This document shows positions 43,931 to 53,572 of a DNA stretch of 64,000 bases, piece after piece. A model generated the notes under the pieces. That model saw only the letters and a program-made list of their open reading frames with translations, did no database searches and was not told the origin of the DNA. This stretch comes from Candidatus Berkelbacteria bacterium RIFCSPLOWO2_01_FULL_50_28. GTDB lineage: Bacteria; Patescibacteriota; UBA1384; 2-12-FULL-50-11. The translations under genes and the position numbers were made by a program. Position 1 is the first letter of the stretch. Every line of letters begins with the position of its first letter. Where the stretch lies: NCBI GenBank assembly GCA_001774395.1, contig MEZX01000002.1, forward strand, positions 402,108 to 466,107. Direction: 5' to 3'.

Positions 43931-46216
43931 ATGTCTAAGAATTTAGTCATCGTTGAAAGCCCGGCCAAAGCCAGAACTATCAATCAGTATCTGGGCAGTG
44001 ACTACGTAGTTAAAGCCTCATTTGGGCACATCCGTGATCTGCCAAAAACAAAGCTAGGCATTGAACCGGAGCACGATTTTGCCGTCCAGTACCAGGCAAT
44101 TCCCAGAGCAAAGTCCGTGATTAAGGAGCTTCAAACAGAACTCTCCACAGCCGATGCGCTCTATCTGGCACCCGATCCTGATCGCGAAGGTGAGGCGATC
44201 GCCTGGCATCTGGTGGCTCAGCTCAAACCAAAGGTTCCCGTGCATCGCATCTCTTTTCACGAAATTACCAAGCCGGCAATTGAGGCGGCGATAAAAAATC
44301 CACGCGATATCTCGATCAATCTAGTTGATGCTCAACAAGCCAGGCGAATTCTTGACCGATTAGTTGGTTACAAATTGTCGCCGTTCTTGTGGAAAAAAGT
44401 TTATCGAGGGCTGTCGGCTGGTCGCGTGCAGTCAGTCGCCGTCCGGCTCATTGTTGAACGCGAGCGCGAAATTAAGGCGCATAAAGTTCGTGAATTCTGG
44501 ACTATCGAAGCAGTGATGAAAACAAAAGACGGACTTGCCCACCGAAGCCCTCGCCTTGCCGAAGCCGTCGGCGAAGCGCAGGCCGGCGAAGGTGGAGAGT
44601 TCAAGGCCTATCTTGCCGACTCGAAAACCGCCGTCAAGGCCGAGTTTGGCAGTGACGCCGAAGCGCAAAAAGTTGTCCATCAAATCCAGAAGGCTTCACT
44701 CACGGTAACTTCGCTTGAAGTGACGCAGTCGCAGATTAAGCCTTCCGCTCCGCTCATCACATCAACTCTGCAACAAGCGGCGGCACGAGCGTTGAATTTT
44801 TCTGCCAAGCGAACGATGAAAATTGCCCAGGACCTTTACGAAGGAATTGACATCGGGGGCAAAGGAACGGTGGCTCTTATAACGTATATGCGAACTGATT
44901 CCTACCAGATGTCGCAGACTGCCAAAAAGGCAGGCAATGAGCTGATCGCCAAAAACTACGGCGCCAAGTACTTGCCTGAAACCGCCAACGTCTTCGGCCG
45001 TAAGGTGAAGGGTGCTCAAGAAGCACACGAGGCCATTCGCCCGACAGACTTTACGATTAAACCCGAGGATATCAAGGACAAAGTGAATCGTGATTATTAC
45101 GGTCTTTACAAGCTAATTTGGCAGTCTGCGCTATCGTCGCTGATGAGCCCTTCCATTGTTGAATCCACCACAGCCGTTATTGACGGTGCAACTAAAAATC
45201 GCCTCATTGCTCGTGGCCGCAAGCTGCTGTTCGACGGCCACCTAAAATTGAATGCTAACAACGATGAGCGTTTTGAAGCCCTGCCAAAACTTACTAAGGG
45301 CGAAGGCGTGAAGGTGAAACAAATTTTGCCGGAGCAACACTTCACTGAACCGCCCGCTCGTTACTCAGAAGCTAGCCTTGTTAAAGAACTGGAAAAGCGG
45401 GGGATTGGGCGACCGTCCACTTACGCCCCAATAATGTCGACCATTGTTGATCGCGGTTACGTTCTGCGTCAAACCGGGCGCTTCGTGCCGCAAAGCGTGG
45501 CGGAGGTAGTGACAGATCTCTTGGTCGAAAACTTTCCGAAAATTGTCGACTACGATTTCACAGCCGAAATGGAAGACGACCTAGACGATATCGCCGAAGG
45601 CAGTAAAAAGATGGTGCCGGTGTTGCACGCATTTTACGATCCATTTGCCGCATTGTTGGAAGAAAAAACTAAGACCGTCAAAAAAAGTGAGATTACAGAA
45701 GAGGCGACCGACCAGAAATGTCCGAAATGCGCAAAACCGGTGGTCATAAAACTTGGCCGTTTCGGCAAGTTCTACTCCTGCACTGGTTTTCCGGAGTGTA
45801 AATACACCGCGCCGTACTTGGATGACAAGTTCAACAAGGAAGAAGAAAAGGAGCTGGCCCAAGAAGTAAAGGGTAAGTGTGAAAAATGTGGCGGAGAGTT
45901 AGTCCTAAAGCAAAGCCGGTTCGGCACATTTATTGGCTGCGCCAATTACCCAAAGTGCAAGTTCACCAAAAGCATCATCATCGGATCAGGGGTTAAATGC
46001 CCCGACTGCGGTAAAGAGATCATTCGCCGCTCGTCGCGCCGCGGCAAAGTTTTCTGGGGCTGTTCCGGCTATCCGAAATGTAAGAAGGCCTTCTGGGATG
46101 AGCCGTTAAACGAGAAGTGTCCTGATTGTGGCAACCTTCTCATCAATAAAAAATCCGGCATCGCGTGCAGCCAGTGCGACTTTACGAAGGAAGAAAAGGT
46201 TTCTTCCACGAAGTAG
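43931..46216 (+). CDS. topA: DNA topoisomerase I
   Basis: Toprim N-terminus (LVIVESPAKARTI), active-site Tyr region (GLYEGIDIGGKGTVALITYMRTDS), four C-terminal C4 zinc ribbons. Confidence 0.9.
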   Translation: MSKNLVIVESPAKARTINQYLGSDYVVKASFGHIRDLPKTKLGIEPEHDFAVQYQAIPRAKSVIKELQTELSTADALYLAPDPDREGEAIAWHLVAQLKPKVPVHRISFHEITKPAIEAAIKNPRDISINLVDAQQARRILDRLVGYKLSPFLWKKVYRGLSAGRVQSVAVRLIVEREREIKAHKVREFWTIEAVMKTKDGLAHRSPRLAEAVGEAQAGEGGEFKAYLADSKTAVKAEFGSDAEAQKVVHQIQKASLTVTSLEVTQSQIKPSAPLITSTLQQAAARALNFSAKRTMKIAQDLYEGIDIGGKGTVALITYMRTDSYQMSQTAKKAGNELIAKNYGAKYLPETANVFGRKVKGAQEAHEAIRPTDFTIKPEDIKDKVNRDYYGLYKLIWQSALSSLMSPSIVESTTAVIDGATKNRLIARGRKLLFDGHLKLNANNDERFEALPKLTKGEGVKVKQILPEQHFTEPPARYSEASLVKELEKRGIGRPSTYAPIMSTIVDRGYVLRQTGRFVPQSVAEVVTDLLVENFPKIVDYDFTAEMEDDLDDIAEGSKKMVPVLHAFYDPFAALLEEKTKTVKKSEITEEATDQKCPKCAKPVVIKLGRFGKFYSCTGFPECKYTAPYLDDKFNKEEEKELAQEVKGKCEKCGGELVLKQSRFGTFIGCANYPKCKFTKSIIIGSGVKCPDCGKEIIRRSSRRGKVFWGCSGYPKCKKAFWDEPLNEKCPDCGNLLINKKSGIACSQCDFTKEEKVSSTK

Positions 46217-46240: not shown

Positions 46241-46876
46241 ATGAAAAGCATTTTGCCAAAGTCCGTTGAGAAACTCTCCGAGGTCCTTGCCTCGCTTCCT
46301 GGCGTCGGCCCCAAAACCGCCAACCGTTTAACGTTCTATTTACTCGGTCGCAACGACGAGGAGCTGAAAAAATTCGGTGAGGCTTTTGGAACGCTTAAAG
46401 ATAATCTCACCATTTGTTCGCAGTGTTTTATTGTTACAGAAACTGACCCGTGCCCAATCTGTGCCGATGACACGCGTGAGAGAACTAAGATGGCGGTAGT
46501 CGAGGAACCACTTGATGTTCTGGCGCTTGAGAAAGCCCATTTCAATGGGATATATCATGTTTTGGGCGGGCAGATTTCACCAATCAATAACGTCGGTCCA
46601 GAAGATCTGAAGATTAAAGAATTACTGGAGCGATTGACCACGGATGATTTCAAGGAAGTGATCTTGGCGATGGACCCGACGTTGGAAGGGGAAGCAACCG
46701 TAATGTATGTGGACGAGAAAATTGCCGAGGCTCGCCATGGAAGAAAAGGCGCCGCAAAGCTCATTGTTTCTCGCTTAGCTCGAGGACTTCCCGTGGGGGG
46801 AGACTTGGAGTACGCCGACGAACTAACACTCACTCGCGCCCTAGAAGGTCGGCGCAGCTACTCCTCGCCCGACTAA
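46241..46876 (+). CDS. recR: recombination protein RecR
   Basis: HhH (LPGVGPKTANRL), C4 zinc finger (CSQC...CPIC), Toprim. Confidence 0.85.
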   Translation: MKSILPKSVEKLSEVLASLPGVGPKTANRLTFYLLGRNDEELKKFGEAFGTLKDNLTICSQCFIVTETDPCPICADDTRERTKMAVVEEPLDVLALEKAHFNGIYHVLGGQISPINNVGPEDLKIKELLERLTTDDFKEVILAMDPTLEGEATVMYVDEKIAEARHGRKGAAKLIVSRLARGLPVGGDLEYADELTLTRALEGRRSYSSPD

Positions 46877-46881
46877 GTATC

Positions 46882-47169
46882 TTGTCATCTAATGTTCAAA
46901 ACAATAAAGTAGACACAATGAAGCCAGATCACACCGAAGAATACATCTGCAACAACTGCGGTTACACCAGCCCGGTGGCTAATGATGCTTGTCCCGAATG
47001 CAAATCACCGATGGCAAAACTCGACGACGGCGAAGCCCACCGTGGCACTTCGACGCAAGAGGGCGATGAAGTGGACGACTCTCATTACAACAGTGACGGT
47101 ATGGAATCGTTAGAAGCCTTACGGGCCAAGGAAGATAGCGAAGACGACCCTCCGTTTGACGACGCGTAA
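46882..47169 (+). CDS. small acidic zinc-ribbon protein
   Basis: CNNCGYTSPVANDACPECKSP ribbon followed by a 60-aa D/E-rich tail. Confidence 0.45.
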   Translation: MSSNVQNNKVDTMKPDHTEEYICNNCGYTSPVANDACPECKSPMAKLDDGEAHRGTSTQEGDEVDDSHYNSDGMESLEALRAKEDSEDDPPFDDA

Positions 47170-47346
47170 TAAAGTATTTCTCAAGATTAAATAGTTGAAT
47201 ATTTTGTGGCAAACACTGCCACGCATTTATGGGTACAAAAAACGGGCCCGGCGTTGCCGCCAGGCCCAAGATGTTTCAACTTACCGCCCTTTCCTTCCAC
47301 CTATGTGTTCGGTAGGAATCACGGTTTACGGTCAGTTGAGGGACCG

Positions 47347-49182
47347 TTAGTCCTTGCGCATCAGCTTGTCACCGTGACGAATGGTGGTGCTGTACGCCAG
47401 GGACTGCAATGCAGCCTCCTCAGCTAGCCTCGCTGCTTCAAGCACTTGCTCGTATGCAACTTGCGGCTGAGTGTGACGGATCCGTAGCTCGTTAAGCTTG
47501 TCCTGCTCGTCAAGCGTGAGACAACCGTTCGTTTCAAACGAGCGGTACAGATCTTGCACATCGGTGAGCCCATTTTGGTACGCGAGTTTCCTGAAGTCGC
47601 TCCAGTCTTGGGATCCGGGAAGCACGATCTCGATGAAGTTTCCCCAGGAGAGGATGGTGTTGCCACCAAACTCGTCTAGAGTTGCTTTCACATAACGCGG
47701 GAGTTCTTCGATGTTATCCAGAGTTAAGCCAGAGCCGATAACCATCGATGTTCGAATAAATATTCCATTGTCGCGAGCCAGCTGGAGCATCCGACGGTCG
47801 TTTGTGACCTGTTTGCCTAGTGCTCGCTTTGTCTCCTTATCCCAGCCGTCGATGCCAACGTAAGCGACCTTCACCCCTGTCTGGGGGAGAAGGGGAGCGG
47901 TGTGCTCGTTGATCGAGCCGGCCGTCAAATAGACGTACCGTCCAACCTCCGGCCCACCGTACTTCTTTTTCGCTTTGATGTAGCTTTCGAGCCACATCCG
48001 TTGAGCCGACCCCATCTCCGGGATCCACTGGTTGCTGACATCAAAGAGCCAGTTCGCTCCGTATTTCTCGACCAGCTCGCGTTCAATCGCGAAGTGATCT
48101 TCGAAGTTCCGGAAGCGCGCTATCCACTCAACCCCCTGCAGACTGCAGAAAGGGCAAGCGGCACCAACGGCATTGGCCCAGGCGCAACCGCGACACGACT
48201 CAGTGATGAGCATGCGCGGGGCAACCATCGGTCCAAAGTCGTAGTGACTCATCTCTGTTAACCGTTCAGGGAGGGCTAGCAAGTTGTCGTAGTGAGGCAA
48301 AGCGTAGTGATCCTCACGGGTCACCGGCTTGTATCCCTCTGCAAACTTCTTGCCGTTGAGAAGCAACTCGCCAAGCACCGCCTCAGCATCGCCCACACCG
48401 ACGTGGTCGATGTAAGGCTGACTCAGGTACGCGCTCGGGCAGACCCGGACCAGCTGACCGCCCACACCCGTTCTCAGCTTGTCGCCGAAGTCCGCTTTCA
48501 ACTGCCGAAGCAGATCAAGCGAACCGCAAGCGTTGTAGCTAAGCAACGTGCAAAAGATGACAGGCTCATCGCCGGCATCGAGCACCTCTTGGATGTGGTT
48601 GCGAAGGTAGTTGAGCAGCCAAGGCCGCTCTTCACCTTCCGCAACGTCGGAGCTAACGAACGTCTCGTCGATTGCCAAGCCGGGATACCCCAGCAAGTCG
48701 ATGGTGACCTGGTTTAAGACAGCGACGCTGCCGTTAACCATCAAGAGCGTATCGAAGCGCTCTTCGTACGCGCGATCAGGGCGCGCGTGCACGTAGATCG
48801 GGCGAAGTGTCGCCATACCAACCAAGAATAACGGCCAAGCTCTTCGCCACATCGGGCCGTTCGGCCTAAATGTGATATTGAGCTGCTCTTTAGCTGGAAC
48901 GCGTTTGAAGCAACCTGGGTGGGTGTTGGGTATAACGTCGCCAGATGCCCGCCACATGGCGAGACCAGGGTCGTTGTTCACGAACTCGTTGGTTGAAGCG
49001 TCGTAATGGATAAACTCCGCCGAGCCGTACATTTTGTACTCAGGGACAACGGTGTTCACCTGAAACAGGCTACACACCACAACAACTGCAAGAAGAATAT
49101 GGAAAATGGTTCTCATGGCGGTAACCTCCGAAATCAAATTGTTTAGGGACAATTCCCTTTTAAGGCGTTGCCATACTATCAT
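47347..49182 (-). CDS. radical SAM-like (B12-binding-domain-like + Fe-S core) protein with N-terminal signal/TM anchor and atypical Cys motif
   Basis: N-terminal MRTIFHILLAVVVVCSLF. Central ITESCRGCAWANAVGAACPFCS (C-x2-C-x9-C-x2-C instead of CxxxCxxC). C-terminal rSAM-like TIM-barrel signatures (YVYLTAGSINE, GIFIRTSMVIGSGLT). Confidence 0.35.
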   Translation of the reverse strand: MIVWQRLKRELSLNNLISEVTAMRTIFHILLAVVVVCSLFQVNTVVPEYKMYGSAEFIHYDASTNEFVNNDPGLAMWRASGDVIPNTHPGCFKRVPAKEQLNITFRPNGPMWRRAWPLFLVGMATLRPIYVHARPDRAYEERFDTLLMVNGSVAVLNQVTIDLLGYPGLAIDETFVSSDVAEGEERPWLLNYLRNHIQEVLDAGDEPVIFCTLLSYNACGSLDLLRQLKADFGDKLRTGVGGQLVRVCPSAYLSQPYIDHVGVGDAEAVLGELLLNGKKFAEGYKPVTREDHYALPHYDNLLALPERLTEMSHYDFGPMVAPRMLITESCRGCAWANAVGAACPFCSLQGVEWIARFRNFEDHFAIERELVEKYGANWLFDVSNQWIPEMGSAQRMWLESYIKAKKKYGGPEVGRYVYLTAGSINEHTAPLLPQTGVKVAYVGIDGWDKETKRALGKQVTNDRRMLQLARDNGIFIRTSMVIGSGLTLDNIEELPRYVKATLDEFGGNTILSWGNFIEIVLPGSQDWSDFRKLAYQNGLTDVQDLYRSFETNGCLTLDEQDKLNELRIRHTQPQVAYEQVLEAARLAEEAALQSLAYSTTIRHGDKLMRKD

Positions 49183-49336
49183 ATCCTTGGTTAAAAGTCA
49201 ACGGTTACGGGCTGAAAAACCAAATACCGAAAACCGGCAACTGCCAAAAATATCAATACCGAAAATTCTCCGATTCGCTCCGCGAACCTTCCGGAAGGGA
49301 GGCGAATATTCTCCATACCTCTGTGAGAAGCGTGCT

Positions 49337-49363
49337 GGGGTATGGGGTGTGGGGAGGTAGGGG
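49337..49363 (+). other. canonical G-quadruplex-forming motif in the divergent cysS / rSAM-like promoter region
   Basis: GGGGTATGGGGTGTGGGGAGGTAGGGG (four G4 runs, loops 3/3/5). Overlaps a GC hairpin, with a 12-bp palindrome CCTTCCGGAAGG 45 nt upstream. Confidence 0.5.
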
Positions 49364-49456
49364 CGGGCTTCAAGACTCCGAGCCCCTCCTCCCCACAATA
49401 ATGTGTCTAAAGCCGTAGGCTTTATCAATCAAACTTTTTCCTGTAAAAATTAAGTA

Positions 49457-50794
49457 ATGTTATCTCTCTACAGCACTCTTGAAGGCAAGAAGGAAGAGTT
49501 CAAGCCCATTACACCCAAAAAAGTGGGTATGTACGTCTGTGGGCCAACGGTTTACGATTACGGTCACTTGGGTCATGCCCGCACTTACCTGGCCTTCGAC
49601 CTCTTGCATCGTTTGCTGCGTTACCAGGGTTACGAGGTAAACTACGTTCAGAATATCACCGATGTTGGACACCTGGTTAACGACAGCGAATCAGGGGTAG
49701 ATAAGATAAAACAGAAGGCCCAGGAAACTGGCGAGAGTCCTGGCGACATTGTGCGACGTTATACCGAGGCCCATTTCAAGGACTTAAGGGATCTAAACAT
49801 CTTACAGCCAACAACCTCTCCAAAAGCCTCCGAAAATATTAAAGAAATCATCGATTTTGTCGAAGTACTTCTGCATAAGAAATTCGCATATGTGACCGAC
49901 CTGGGAAACGTCTACTTCTCGGTGGCCCGCAAATCTGATTACGGTAAACTTTCAAGGAGGGGAGTGGCAGAAATTCTTACCGGTACCAGGGTAGAATCGG
50001 CACAAGACAAGCGATCGTCAACTGATTTTGCGCTTTGGAAAGCGGCACCGCACGGCAATACCGAGATGACTTGGGAGTCGCCCTGGGGGCGTGGTTTCCC
50101 AGGCTGGCATATCGAGTGTTCGGCGATGAGCCAGAAATATTTAGGCGATACCTTTGATATTCACGGTGCGGCAGTTGAACACGTTTTTCCCCATCACGAA
50201 AACGAAATCGCCCAATCCGAGGCGGCCACCGATAAACCGATGGCTAACTACTGGGTTCACTCCGGAATGTTGACCATAAACGGCTCAAAGATGAGTAAAT
50301 CGACCCGTAACACTGTTACCGTCCAAGACGCTTTAAAAACATATTCTTCTAACGAGATAAGGCTGGCAATGTATCTCACTCATTACCGAAAGCCTTTCGA
50401 CTTTACCAAGCAAGCGATGCAACAAGGGGTAGCGCTCCGCGGCAAGCTATTTAGCGCCTATGCCAGTGATCTGCCAGAGAAAACTGCTCCAGAGGTGTTG
50501 GAAGAGGTGATAGCGGCTTTAGAGGACGATCTTGATAGCCCACGAGCTCTGCAGGTTTGGTCGGAAGGTGCACTCAAGTTCAACCGAGCCGATTCCGATC
50601 AGCTCTTTGCAATATTCGGTCTTTCCTATATAAGGATTGAAGAGATACCCAGAGCCAAGCAACTGGCCCAAGAGCGCGAGCAAGCCAGAAGCAGTAAGGA
50701 TTTTCTGACGGCAGACAACCGTAAAGCAGAAATCGCACAGATGGGTTTCGAGGTTCTCGACGCCGAAGGCGGCACAGTTTACCTCCCGCATTAA
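49457..50794 (+). CDS. cysS: cysteinyl-tRNA synthetase
   Basis: HLGH and KMSKS motifs, zinc-binding Cys residues. 445 aa. Confidence 0.9.
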   Translation: MLSLYSTLEGKKEEFKPITPKKVGMYVCGPTVYDYGHLGHARTYLAFDLLHRLLRYQGYEVNYVQNITDVGHLVNDSESGVDKIKQKAQETGESPGDIVRRYTEAHFKDLRDLNILQPTTSPKASENIKEIIDFVEVLLHKKFAYVTDLGNVYFSVARKSDYGKLSRRGVAEILTGTRVESAQDKRSSTDFALWKAAPHGNTEMTWESPWGRGFPGWHIECSAMSQKYLGDTFDIHGAAVEHVFPHHENEIAQSEAATDKPMANYWVHSGMLTINGSKMSKSTRNTVTVQDALKTYSSNEIRLAMYLTHYRKPFDFTKQAMQQGVALRGKLFSAYASDLPEKTAPEVLEEVIAALEDDLDSPRALQVWSEGALKFNRADSDQLFAIFGLSYIRIEEIPRAKQLAQEREQARSSKDFLTADNRKAEIAQMGFEVLDAEGGTVYLPH

Positions 50795-51084: not shown

Positions 51085-52245
51085 ATGAGAAAGTATGCAA
51101 TCGGAATTCTGTTGGTCGTCATGCTGGGTGTTGCGCCTTTGGCGCAGGCCCAGCTACTGGAAGGGTTGGTCTGGGCTGCTGCAAGCAGTTTTGTCAACAA
51201 CGCGCTGGCCAGGGGCCAGCAAAAGACGGTTTCGGCCGTCAAGGTCATGTGCGACATCCTCACCGAGGACGTCGACGGGAAGTTCTCGCCGACGCCGTTC
51301 GGTTGGGATCCTACCACTCAGACGTCGATCTTCATGGTCGACGGACTGGCGCTAAGGGTTGCCGCGTTCACAAACGGCCCGCCGCCCCACGGTTTGACCT
51401 ATTACCTCAATGATGCGAAGCTCGCGTTTCGCAAGGTTGAGGGAGACAGAGGTGGCAAGGACGGCAAGGGACTCGGAGTGATCGGAGACTATCCGGTCAT
51501 CAAGCCCAGCCAGATGAGATACGGGATCAACCAAATCAAGGTCTACGCCGGAGGGAAGCAGTGGGGCGACTGCACGTTCTGGCGATTACGGTCCGTTAAG
51601 GACGTTCTTGCTGCTATGGGGGACCCAGAGCTTCGCGAGAAGTTGTATGGTTTCGGCGGGGCAACCTACCCTTCGATGCCAACCTTGGTGACGCAGATGC
51701 CGGATGGTTCGCTTGCGACGTTTCATTCGAAAGAGGAAATGGAAGCGACGTTTGCCAAGCTGAATCAGCAGGGCATGCAGGGTGGAAGGTCAACTCCGCC
51801 GCAAGGCGGCAAGATCGATCCGCCGCAACCGCCCGCCGCAGGGCAGACGGTTGATGTCGCAACAACGGCCTCGCCGTTCACGGTGCAGACGCACCTGTAC
51901 GATCTAGCCGAAACGCGCTTCGGTGACAAAGACGCGATCCGGCTGGACTTGGCCACGAAGGCGAGCCAAGCTGGAGCGTTCACTGGCGAAATCCTGTCAA
52001 TTCCTTCGAAGAAAGGGCAGGCGGTCCTCATCAGGGCCGATAGTGAGTTCACTGCGGAGCTCGTTCGCCCTGACGGAACAATCGCAAGGAAGTACAACGT
52101 CGCGCCATTCGAATTCGGGGGCGTGACGCATTATTCAACTATCGTATTGCTGTCCAACGATGGCAAACCGATGTTGAATCAACTCACTCTGCGCTCGGGT
52201 AACGAGCGCCGCATCATCACGTTCACGAAGGAGGAACTACGATGA
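51085..52245 (+). CDS. secreted hypothetical protein (signal peptide), GC-rich island gene 1
   Basis: MRKYAIGILLVVMLGVAPLAQA|QLL signal peptide. About 59% GC against about 48% for flanking genes. Confidence 0.6.
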   Translation: MRKYAIGILLVVMLGVAPLAQAQLLEGLVWAAASSFVNNALARGQQKTVSAVKVMCDILTEDVDGKFSPTPFGWDPTTQTSIFMVDGLALRVAAFTNGPPPHGLTYYLNDAKLAFRKVEGDRGGKDGKGLGVIGDYPVIKPSQMRYGINQIKVYAGGKQWGDCTFWRLRSVKDVLAAMGDPELREKLYGFGGATYPSMPTLVTQMPDGSLATFHSKEEMEATFAKLNQQGMQGGRSTPPQGGKIDPPQPPAAGQTVDVATTASPFTVQTHLYDLAETRFGDKDAIRLDLATKASQAGAFTGEILSIPSKKGQAVLIRADSEFTAELVRPDGTIARKYNVAPFEFGGVTHYSTIVLLSNDGKPMLNQLTLRSGNERRIITFTKEELR

Positions 52246-52880
52246 AACGACTCTGCATTTCGGCTCTCTTGACACTCGTCGCGGCGCTGGGCTTTGCCCA
52301 GTACACTCAGCTCGGTCGGGATCCAATGGTCCCCGGCGGGGTGACTCCAGAGCAGGCAGTTGCCAAGGGGCATCGTCTGTTCAACCTGCCAGTTGATACT
52401 CACTGCAGAATGGGCAGCGGCAGCGGCAAGTGGGTTAACGCTTTCTTGCCCAAGGGGTTGGCGATGGCGGTTCGGCCAGACGGTCGCGCCTATATCCTGT
52501 TCTGCGGCAACGACTCAGACATTCCGGTGGTTTTCGTGAAGGTCCCTGGACCAACCATCCAGCTGCCCGGAAAGCCGTACCCCGTTCCTGGACCAACCAT
52601 TCAGCTGCCCGGAAAGCCGTTTCCCGTGCCCGGGCCGACGGAGTACGTTGATCGATGGTCACTGGTGCTGGCTCCCCAGCAGCAGTACATCGCGAACCTA
52701 CCCTCGCCAACGGTGATCGCGCCGGTCCTGGGCGGAATCACCGCCGTCATCGGCGGCGGGACGAAGATCAACGTATCGAGCACGAATACGTTGGCCCAGT
52801 ACCAGCAACAGGTCGCCGAAGCGGCGGCCGCAGCGGCCGCCGCAGCAGCGGCAGCAGCAGCTGCAGTCGGCGGCCACTAG
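52242..52880 (+). CDS. secreted repeat protein (signal peptide, tandem 14-aa Pro-rich repeats, C-terminal poly-Ala), island gene 2
   Basis: MKRLCISALLTLVAALGFAQ signal. VPGPTIQLPGKPYP repeated 2.3 times. The protein ends ...EAAAAAAAAAAAAAAAVGGH. Overlaps gene 1 by 4 nt. Confidence 0.5.
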   Translation: MKRLCISALLTLVAALGFAQYTQLGRDPMVPGGVTPEQAVAKGHRLFNLPVDTHCRMGSGSGKWVNAFLPKGLAMAVRPDGRAYILFCGNDSDIPVVFVKVPGPTIQLPGKPYPVPGPTIQLPGKPFPVPGPTEYVDRWSLVLAPQQQYIANLPSPTVIAPVLGGITAVIGGGTKINVSSTNTLAQYQQQVAEAAAAAAAAAAAAAAAVGGH

Positions 52881-53002
52881 CCGCCGAACGTATCCAACTG
52901 AGGAGGTGCGGGCCACAAGCCCCACCTCCTCACATCCCTTCTTGAACTAACAGTCGAATTGGTTTAAGAAGTAGATGTGGAAAATTAATAGAAAGGATAA
53001 AT

Positions 53003-53572
53003 ATGAAAGTATTTATAATCTCTTTGGCGACACTTGCGGCCGTGCTACTTATTAGCCCAGCCGTCCTTGCTTCCAGCTCTTCCAGCTCAAGCTCTTCGTC
53101 CGCTGCTGCTTCGGCAGCTGCTGGCGGATCGGCTGCGGCTTCGGGCTCGGCAGGGTCAAGTGCGTCCAGTGCGGGTGGTTCGGGTTCTAGCTCGTCCAGC
53201 TCTTCTGCGGCTTCGGCTGCGGCTGCTGCTGCGGCTTCGGGCTCAAACGGTAGCACGGGTAATACCGTGATCGTTAAGAAACAAGCTACCTGCAAGGCAG
53301 CTTCGGCTGCCGCGGCTGCTGCCGCTGCCGCTTCTGGAACAGGCGCCGATGTATCAACATCTGCTTCTGGTTCCGCTGCTGCCGCTGCTGCTGCTAGCGC
53401 TGTTGCGGTCTGCCCGGCTCGTACAGTTAAGGTTGCGAAAGTAACTAAAACTGTTACCGAGCTACCAGCAACCGGTGCCGAAACGGCACTATTGCCTGGC
53501 TTCGCGACTGCGTTTGCTTTCGCTCTTCGCAAGTATTCACTTGCTAAGCACGAGGCATCGCTTCTTGCTTAA
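53003..53572 (+). CDS. Ser/Ala-rich low-complexity surface protein with LPATG sortase-type sorting signal, island gene 3
   Basis: Signal peptide MKVFIISLATLAAVLLISPAVLA. Long S/A/G tracts. C-terminal LPATG + hydrophobic AETALLPGFATAFAFAL + basic tail RKYSLAKHEASLLA. Confidence 0.5.
   Translation: MKVFIISLATLAAVLLISPAVLASSSSSSSSSSAAASAAAGGSAAASGSAGSSASSAGGSGSSSSSSSAASAAAAAAASGSNGSTGNTVIVKKQATCKAASAAAAAAAAASGTGADVSTSASGSAAAAAAASAVAVCPARTVKVAKVTKTVTELPATGAETALLPGFATAFAFALRKYSLAKHEASLLA

Follow-up and report, generated by a model that had tools for sequence, protein, structure and literature searches.

We analysed a 64,000-nucleotide stretch of DNA from Candidatus Berkelbacteria bacterium RIFCSPLOWO2_01_FULL_50_28 (contig MEZX01000002.1, forward-strand positions 402,108 to 466,107; hereafter the window), in which a minus-strand gene encodes a putative radical S-adenosylmethionine (SAM) enzyme. 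The maximal open reading frame (ORF) at this locus spans positions 47347-49182 and encodes 611 amino acids (aa). The initial annotation had been built on this ORF, and both the frame and every peptide quoted from it are present, including MRTIFHILLAVVVVCSLF (49116-49063) and CRGCAWANAVGAACPFC (48195-48145). A word-indexed search of 5.8 billion proteins returned 46 clusters, which gave an alignment of 46 sequences (the query and 45 homologs). With 45 homologs at E values of 1e-39 to 1e-169 and a mean predicted local distance difference test score (pLDDT) of 92.3 in AlphaFold2, this is a real gene, well beyond a chance frame.

The likeliest start is the ATG at 49116, which has a Shine-Dalgarno sequence and gives a product of 589 aa beginning MRTIF. 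The NCBI-annotated protein (P0001, "hypothetical protein A3A71_02005") has this 589-aa form and is 100% identical to it. No homolog in the alignment covers residues 1-22 of the 611-aa ORF, no good Shine-Dalgarno sequence precedes the ATG at 49182, and this upstream ATG is overlapped by the -10 box of a promoter candidate (Table 1). The promoter candidate rests on its match to the consensus, and such sites occur in the region at chance level. On the other side of the gene, an intrinsic terminator starts 78 bases beyond the stop codon (fold -29.3 kcal/mol, z -2.9). Because the promoter-like site, the Shine-Dalgarno sequence and the terminator bracket this gene alone, it is a self-contained minus-strand unit amid mostly plus-strand genes. 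The flanking genes topA and recR are both on the plus strand, and the gene read as cysS is divergently transcribed from the radical SAM gene. Residues are numbered on the 589-aa form unless stated; C311, W313, C321 and C324 correspond to C333, W335, C343 and C346 of the 611-aa ORF.

A barrel of the radical SAM type had been proposed in the C-terminal half of the protein, and profile searching bore this out: Pfam Radical_SAM (PF04055) scored 33.8 bits against a gathering score of 29.5, over residues 331-494 of the 611-aa ORF. The AlphaFold2 model built on the 46-sequence alignment (predicted template modelling score 0.82), together with its Foldseek matches, points to a partial (beta/alpha)6 TIM barrel. 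Foldseek comparison of this model with the PDB gave 55 matches at E<=1e-3, and among the matches listed almost all were radical SAM enzymes. The best were all B12-domain radical SAM enzymes, namely AprD4 (7e-15), TsrM (2e-14), OxsB (1e-13), MgmA (6e-13) and CysS (8e-10), followed by MiaB and then by matches to the barrel only. The same comparison supports the B12-binding-like domain suggested earlier for the middle of the protein. Over that segment the Pfam B12-binding profile (PF02310) scored 18.4 bits, below its gathering score of 32.1, yet the fold matches TsrM, OxsB, CysS, MgmA and AprD4, and PF02310 is a precomputed match on 18 of the 45 homologs.

At the sequence level, no solved structure is close to the family: the highest-ranking profile matches in the PDB were a RimO-like protein (E 0.014) and TokK (E 0.05), with TsrM at 0.43. 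In the profile alignment with the RimO-like protein TM_1862, the barrel motifs align and the last two cysteines fall on the C-x2-C of RimO. Every NCBIfam match was far below its cut-off, the best being TIGR03975 (28.4 bits against 281.85). G-alpha matches obtained in a single-sequence PDB search were spurious and were set aside.

Our preferred reading, which we regard as probable, is that the protein is a cytoplasm-facing "class B" radical SAM enzyme consisting of a B12-like Rossmann domain, a partial barrel and a helical C-terminus. SAM would bind the fourth iron of a predicted [4Fe-4S] cluster, and its reductive cleavage would yield a 5'-deoxyadenosyl radical able to abstract hydrogen from the substrate; cleavage of SAM at this cluster is predicted from sequence.

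The cluster motif was examined across the family. Four residues are invariant in the motif region in all 46 sequences: the three cysteines C311, C321 and C324, and W313. Of the 46 first spacers, 22 have 8 residues, 21 have 9 and three have 10, so the family pattern is C-x8-10-C-x2-C (C-x9-C-x2-C here), with the C-x-(F/M)-C end retained; the textbook spacer has 3 residues. The initial annotation had allowed two explanations, an insertion that lengthens the loop from the first cluster cysteine to the second or a four-cysteine site, C-x2-C-x9-C-x2-C. The three invariant cysteines with a spacer of 8-10 residues show that the longer loop is the correct one. A four-cysteine site could fully ligate a cluster or a zinc ion, in which case the protein would not cleave SAM, and four cysteines so spaced are indeed present in the window protein. 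However, the first of these, in "SCRGC", is found in only 3 of the 46 sequences (P0001, P0032 and P0048); the other 43 have a different residue there, in most homologs valine. The conserved spacing also fits a SAM-cluster loop, as does the aromatic residue preceding the last cysteine, and we consider a four-cysteine site extremely unlikely. Since no further cysteine is conserved, a single cluster is expected: one [4Fe-4S] that would be held by C311, C321 and C324, in a loop six residues longer than in CX3CX2C and with the invariant tryptophan two residues past the first cysteine.

A long cysteine spacer is a known kind of variation, and the motif is not as exceptional as had been suggested, since spacers of 7-10 residues are usual in the nearest B12-type relatives and also occur in curated TIGR03975 members. 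Most of the B12-type relatives of about 450 aa recovered in an exhaustive profile search carry GC-x-W-R-x4-5-G-C-x-F-C, equivalent to CX7-9CX2C, and P0095, a relative with a lengthened loop, scores above threshold for both PF02310 and PF04055. SRGCWWG-x4-C-x-F-C (CX7CX2C) is found in four proteins with TIGR03975 scores of 456-678 bits. The RadicalSAM.org paper reports variants from CX4- to CX11-CX2C in other radical SAM subgroups (PMC9477430). These megaclusters, including the ELP3/YhcC subgroup 8, resemble the family in their lengthened spacers but do not belong to the B12-binding subgroup, and Elp3 is a weak, barrel-only Foldseek match (E ~1e-4).

Conservation is stronger in the Rossmann domain, which has more invariant residues than the barrel: H110, D150, Y194-N195, G219-G220, G242-D243 and E245. 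In the profile alignment with TokK (E 0.05), Y194-N195 falls on TokK Trp76-Asn77. Trp76 of TokK lies in the loop after strand 3 and fills the space under the cobalt, as does Arg69 in TsrM (PMC13331322). The aligned Tyr-Asn pair is a weak but positive indication that a cobalamin site has been kept. The conserved Rossmann domain would most likely hold cobalamin, in which case the protein would be a B12-dependent radical SAM enzyme catalysing methyl transfer or rearrangement; judged from the residues and folds compared here, we see the case for and against actual cobalamin use as about evenly balanced. Binding is uncertain because the top structural match, AprD4, is not known to use cobalamin.

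The comparison with AprD4 (a radical SAM 1,2-diol dehydratase, 6fd2) raises the alternative that the same fold and cluster are combined with a Rossmann domain that lacks cobalamin and instead serves substrate binding; the enzyme would then carry out cobalamin-independent radical chemistry, for example dehydrating or rearranging a small molecule resembling a sugar. AprD4 has the highest target-normalised TM score (0.66) as well as the best E value, a similar core size and a B12-like N-domain. The sub-threshold B12-binding score also speaks for this explanation, and the conserved neighbour of some family members is a TrmB-type regulator, a family that Pfam describes as sugar-specific. However, the Foldseek E values of the cobalamin binders TsrM, OxsB and MgmA differ from that of AprD4 by no more than about two orders of magnitude, and the NCBIfam AprD4 model (NF033070) gave no match to the query at E<=1. 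Identity to AprD4 is 13%, and the window gene has no aminoglycoside cluster context. The invariant Tyr-Asn at the under-cobalt position of TokK, and a Rossmann domain that is the most conserved part of the family and richer in invariant residues than the barrel, also argue against a cobalamin-free domain. We regard this alternative as possible but doubtful.

The cobalamin-dependent class B enzymes (SFLD subgroup 5) TsrM, OxsB, TokK, CysS and MgmA show the same three-part architecture as the window protein (Foldseek E 2e-14 to 8e-10), with an N-terminal Rossmann domain followed by the barrel and a conserved post-strand-3 residue at the place under the cobalt. Unlike them, the window protein has the C-x8-10-C-x2-C loop of its family and an extra N-terminal hydrophobic module; sequence similarity to them is insignificant (TokK E 0.05, TsrM 0.43), and the protein reaches no curated NCBIfam cut-off. 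Unnamed B12 radical SAM proteins of about 450 aa (P0095, P0098 and P0102) form the next tier of the profile search (E 1e-20 to 1e-11). They are PF02310 and PF04055 proteins with the CX7-9CX2C loop described above, but they are distant, lack the N-terminal module, and have another C-terminal region and sub-threshold HpnJ/BchE/PhpK matches.

Table 1. Positions of the features discussed in the text. Coordinates refer to the window, or to the named homolog locus where one is given.
Feature	Coordinates	Strand	Basis or remark
Likeliest coding sequence (589 aa, with the stop codon at 47349-47347)	47347..49116	-	ORF, homologs, annotated form, Shine-Dalgarno
Shine-Dalgarno GGAGG, 8 nt 5' of ATG 49116	49125..49129	-	read directly from sequence
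In-frame upstream part of the 611-aa ORF (22 residues)	49117..49182	-	probably 5' untranslated region, not coding
Sigma-70-like promoter candidate, TTGACT-17 nt-(TG)TAGTAT	49173..49201	-	consensus scan, 9/12 matches, extended -10 TG
Intrinsic terminator, 11-bp stem with 9 G-C pairs, then T-run	47233..47268	-	terminator scan
Hydrophobic helix MRTIFHILLAVVVVCSLF, residues 1-18	49063..49116	-	translation; AlphaFold2 helix 2-15
Rest of the ~100-aa N-terminal extension, residues 19-103	48808..49062	-	homology among long forms
Rossmann-type B12-binding-like domain, ~residues 104-262	48331..48807	-	sub-threshold Pfam, Foldseek, invariant residues
Extra cysteine C308 (C330 in 611-aa numbering)	48193-48195	-	non-conserved
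Cluster motif C-AWANAVGAA-C-PF-C, cysteines C311/C321/C324	48145..48186	-	translation and invariant columns
Radical SAM partial TIM-barrel core	47701..48192	-	PF04055, TM_1862 alignment, Foldseek
C-terminal helical domain, ~residues 503-589	47350..47610	-	AlphaFold2 helices 503-570, pLDDT >94; conserved across family; no Pfam assignment
topA	43931-46216	+	read from translation
recR	46241-46876	+	read from translation
95-aa acidic CxxC...CxxC ORF	46882-47169	+	5 nt after the recR stop
12-bp palindrome CCTTCCGGAAGG	49287-49298		
G-quadruplex motif	49337-49363		intergenic region beside cysS
Hairpin	49348-49397		between promoter candidate and cysS; overlaps the G-quadruplex motif
cysS	49457-50794		read from translation
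386-aa protein with classical signal peptide	51085-52245	+	no Pfam match
212-aa repeat protein	52242-52880	+	
Ala/Glu-rich 200-aa low-complexity ORF	52930-53532	-	
TrmB/radical SAM intergenic regions with shared element	L004:7798-8000, L005:4746-4935, L007:7810-8000, L008:7792-8000, L013:953-1111		
Canonical CX3CX2C B12-type radical SAM gene, 481 aa	L003:26-1471	-	
TrmB gene divergent from the 481-aa gene	L003:1666-2439	+	
DsbD-like membrane domain plus thioredoxin/AhpC fusion	L009:6021-7700	+	

About a quarter of the family (13 members, the window protein included) has some 100 extra N-terminal residues. These long forms share the pattern M-[KR]-hydrophobic(12-13)-[RKQ]-[VI]-[DEN]; next comes a small region rich in beta structure, in which P25 and P74 are invariant and W55 and K77 near-invariant (12-13 long forms compared). 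Because the pattern and the conserved residues are common to the long forms, the extension is one homologous module. It has no Pfam match, and the extension domain modelled alone (AlphaFold2, pLDDT 74) had no fold match in the PDB at E<2 in Foldseek. That the short forms are genuine is seen at L007, for instance, where the divergent upstream gene leaves only 191 bp and so no room for the module. Long forms are scattered among short forms on a rough neighbour-joining tree, and the window protein is 50-55% identical to short forms but 39-44% identical to most other long forms. This scatter suggests that the module has been lost repeatedly.

The hydrophobic helix at the start of the module resembles the h-region of a signal peptide or a short membrane anchor, with a basic n-region and an h-region of 12-16 residues. 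An N-terminal signal or anchor and an extracytoplasmic enzyme had been proposed for this protein. The hydrophobic N-terminus is real and starts the 589-aa form, but an extracytoplasmic location is unlikely, given close orthologs without the segment and no twin-arginine motif. The most economical reading is a probable membrane tether: the helix would keep the enzyme on the cytoplasmic side of the membrane, a hint that the substrate is associated with the membrane or the envelope.

The competing explanation, that the N-terminus is a true export signal and that the enzyme, or its N-domain, is active beyond the cytoplasmic membrane, draws on the same basic n-region and h-region and on the acidic residues that follow, all of them signal-peptide-like. 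Folded cofactor-bearing proteins normally need a twin-arginine motif for export, and SAM and low-potential reductant are cytoplasmic. Export of the catalytic domain is therefore unlikely: no twin-arginine motif was found in the N-terminus of the long forms; these forms show no consistent small/small cleavage site at -3/-1, and most lack an A-x-A-type site of the kind present in clearly secreted window proteins (APLAQA/Q in the protein at 51085); and close orthologs lack the N-terminal segment altogether. We consider an export signal very unlikely. A bolder proposal, which we hold to be highly improbable, would take the N-terminal segment as a genuine export or signal-anchor sequence and place the catalytic domain of an extracytoplasmic radical SAM enzyme on the outer face of the membrane of an episymbiotic bacterium of the Candidate Phyla Radiation (CPR); a milder version would have a membrane-tethered B12-type enzyme remodel scavenged host lipids or envelope precursors.

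We compared gene neighbourhoods at 12 distinct homolog loci. The sole recurrent neighbour is a divergent TrmB-family regulator of about 263-270 aa, encoded 160-210 bp upstream in L004, L005, L007, L008, L011 and L013, with a shorter and more distant copy in L016; the remaining neighbours are unrelated housekeeping genes. Every locus with a TrmB neighbour encodes a short form, and TrmB is absent from the long-form loci (the window, L003 and L006) and from the Uhrbacteria locus. No TrmB homolog was found in the 64-kb window by tblastn. The intergenic regions between TrmB and radical SAM genes share an element beside the TrmB start, for example TTTTGTCAATTTTTACGAACAAAA, of the form TTTTGTCAAT-N-ACGAACAAA; the L008 version is a perfect palindrome, TGTCAATTTTAATTGACA. 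This conserved element may be the operator of the TrmB-type regulator. The window has no TGTCAA...TTGACA-type element like that of the relatives.

Two further observations concern these loci. The metagenome-assembled genome (MAG) of L003, which encodes a long form, also has a canonical CX3CX2C B12-type radical SAM gene, divergent from a TrmB gene homologous to the short-form neighbours (Table 1); TrmB/B12-radical-SAM pairs thus recur in CPR genomes. A fusion of a DsbD-like membrane domain with thioredoxin/AhpC is encoded in L009, on the same strand as a distant family member and with a 50-nt gap 5' of it, and again at the P0011 locus, two genes downstream of another member; both placements may be coincidental.

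The neighbourhoods also bear on whether the protein could mature a ribosomally synthesised and post-translationally modified peptide (RiPP), acting on a small precursor peptide like the C-methyltransferases of TIGR03975. TIGR03975 is the top NCBIfam match and shares with the family the B12-type architecture, the lengthened first spacer and the extended C-x-W...C-x2-C loop with a tryptophan after the first cysteine, and small unannotated ORFs lie upstream of the gene in L001 (110 aa), L003 (98 aa) and the P0011 locus (46 aa). However, the query scores 28 bits where the cut-off is 282, and TIGR03975 proteins have about 600-670 aa. The small ORFs are not mutually homologous, and no precursor-peptide gene is conserved next to the family at the 12 loci; nor is there a RiPP recognition element (RRE)-like domain, a peptidase or a transporter among the neighbours. 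The window gene itself, bracketed by a promoter-like site and a terminator and flanked by genes on the opposite strand, has no same-strand neighbour. A role in RiPP maturation therefore appears unlikely.

Several points weigh against a cytoplasm-facing class B enzyme that uses cobalamin and is tethered to the membrane. The Pfam B12-binding score is under its threshold (18.4 against 32.1), and the single best structural match, AprD4, is an enzyme not known to use cobalamin. The N-terminus is basic and acidic residues follow the helix, so that most of the protein would lie outside the cell by the positive-inside rule; the charge pattern also misfits a simple N-out anchor, and the helix has only 12-16 residues. 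Long-form neighbourhoods yield no substrate clue, and in the literature on radical SAM enzymes, B12 and CPR/Patescibacteria we found nothing specific to the family.

We also assessed the other features near the gene. A zinc-ribbon protein had been pointed out as a neighbour. The 95-aa ORF is present, on the strand opposite the radical SAM gene, and gave only sub-threshold rubredoxin-like/zinc-ribbon matches in Pfam and no homologs besides itself among 5.8 billion proteins. A functional link was rejected: the ORF has no counterpart at any of the 12 homolog loci, the terminator lies between the two genes, and the ORF stands directly behind recR. The ORF may be an orphan gene at the tail of the topA-recR operon. 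The G-quadruplex motif, hairpin and palindrome reported upstream of the radical SAM gene are likewise all present, but the G-quadruplex (1 in 64 kb against 1.2 in shuffled sequences) and the 12-bp palindromes (13 against 15.5) occur at chance frequency and were discarded as signals. Of the three, the hairpin alone is stronger than its shuffled counterparts (-35.6 kcal/mol, with z -4.4 for the minus strand and -2.65 for the plus strand); it lacks a T-run and matches nothing in Rfam. No RNA genes turned up in the intergenic regions in Rfam and tRNA scans, whose only finds were five tRNAs elsewhere in the window. Beyond cysS, the window has a cluster of ORFs that could not be annotated: the 386-aa protein whose signal peptide ends in APLAQA/Q, a 212-aa protein with repeated PGPTIQLPGKP units and a 15-Ala run at its end, and a low-complexity ORF (Table 1).

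The initial annotation had judged the gene not to be a standard housekeeping gene, and its distribution agrees with this. When 1.84 billion representatives were searched exhaustively with a profile, 46 matched at E<1e-30, after which came a drop to generic B12-type radical SAM proteins, and relatives were present in 8 of 185,579 species-representative genomes. These eight are labelled Berkelbacteria, Uhrbacteria, Gracilibacteria, "Patescibacteria group", one "Udaeobacter" and three "uncultured Gammaproteobacteria" MAGs; the last three look CPR-like by gene content. The protein thus represents a rare uncharacterised family, mostly of Patescibacteria (CPR), which are tiny symbiotic bacteria; the enzyme class to which this family belongs is very large and well known. 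Some distant members (P0075, P0077, P0084 and P0087; L017, a Gracilibacteria contig) are unusually rich in tryptophan at precisely the places of the family's conserved glycines (for example GQWGPWCS versus GPGGPGCS). These look like genes that use UGA for glycine (genetic code 25) but were translated with UGA as tryptophan in the source databases.

The radical SAM gene does not alter the understanding of radical SAM enzymes and has as yet no wider significance. It does draw attention to a branch of B12-type radical SAM proteins with C-x7-10-C-x2-C that is missed by genome-mining filters requiring CX3CX2C. The patchy N-terminal module and, in relatives, the pairing with TrmB and a palindromic element offer handles on localisation and regulation. 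As a small, well-delimited and essentially Patescibacteria-restricted family with a confident structural model, it presents a bounded target for enzymology, in organisms known largely from metabolic inference, and possibly a new reaction.

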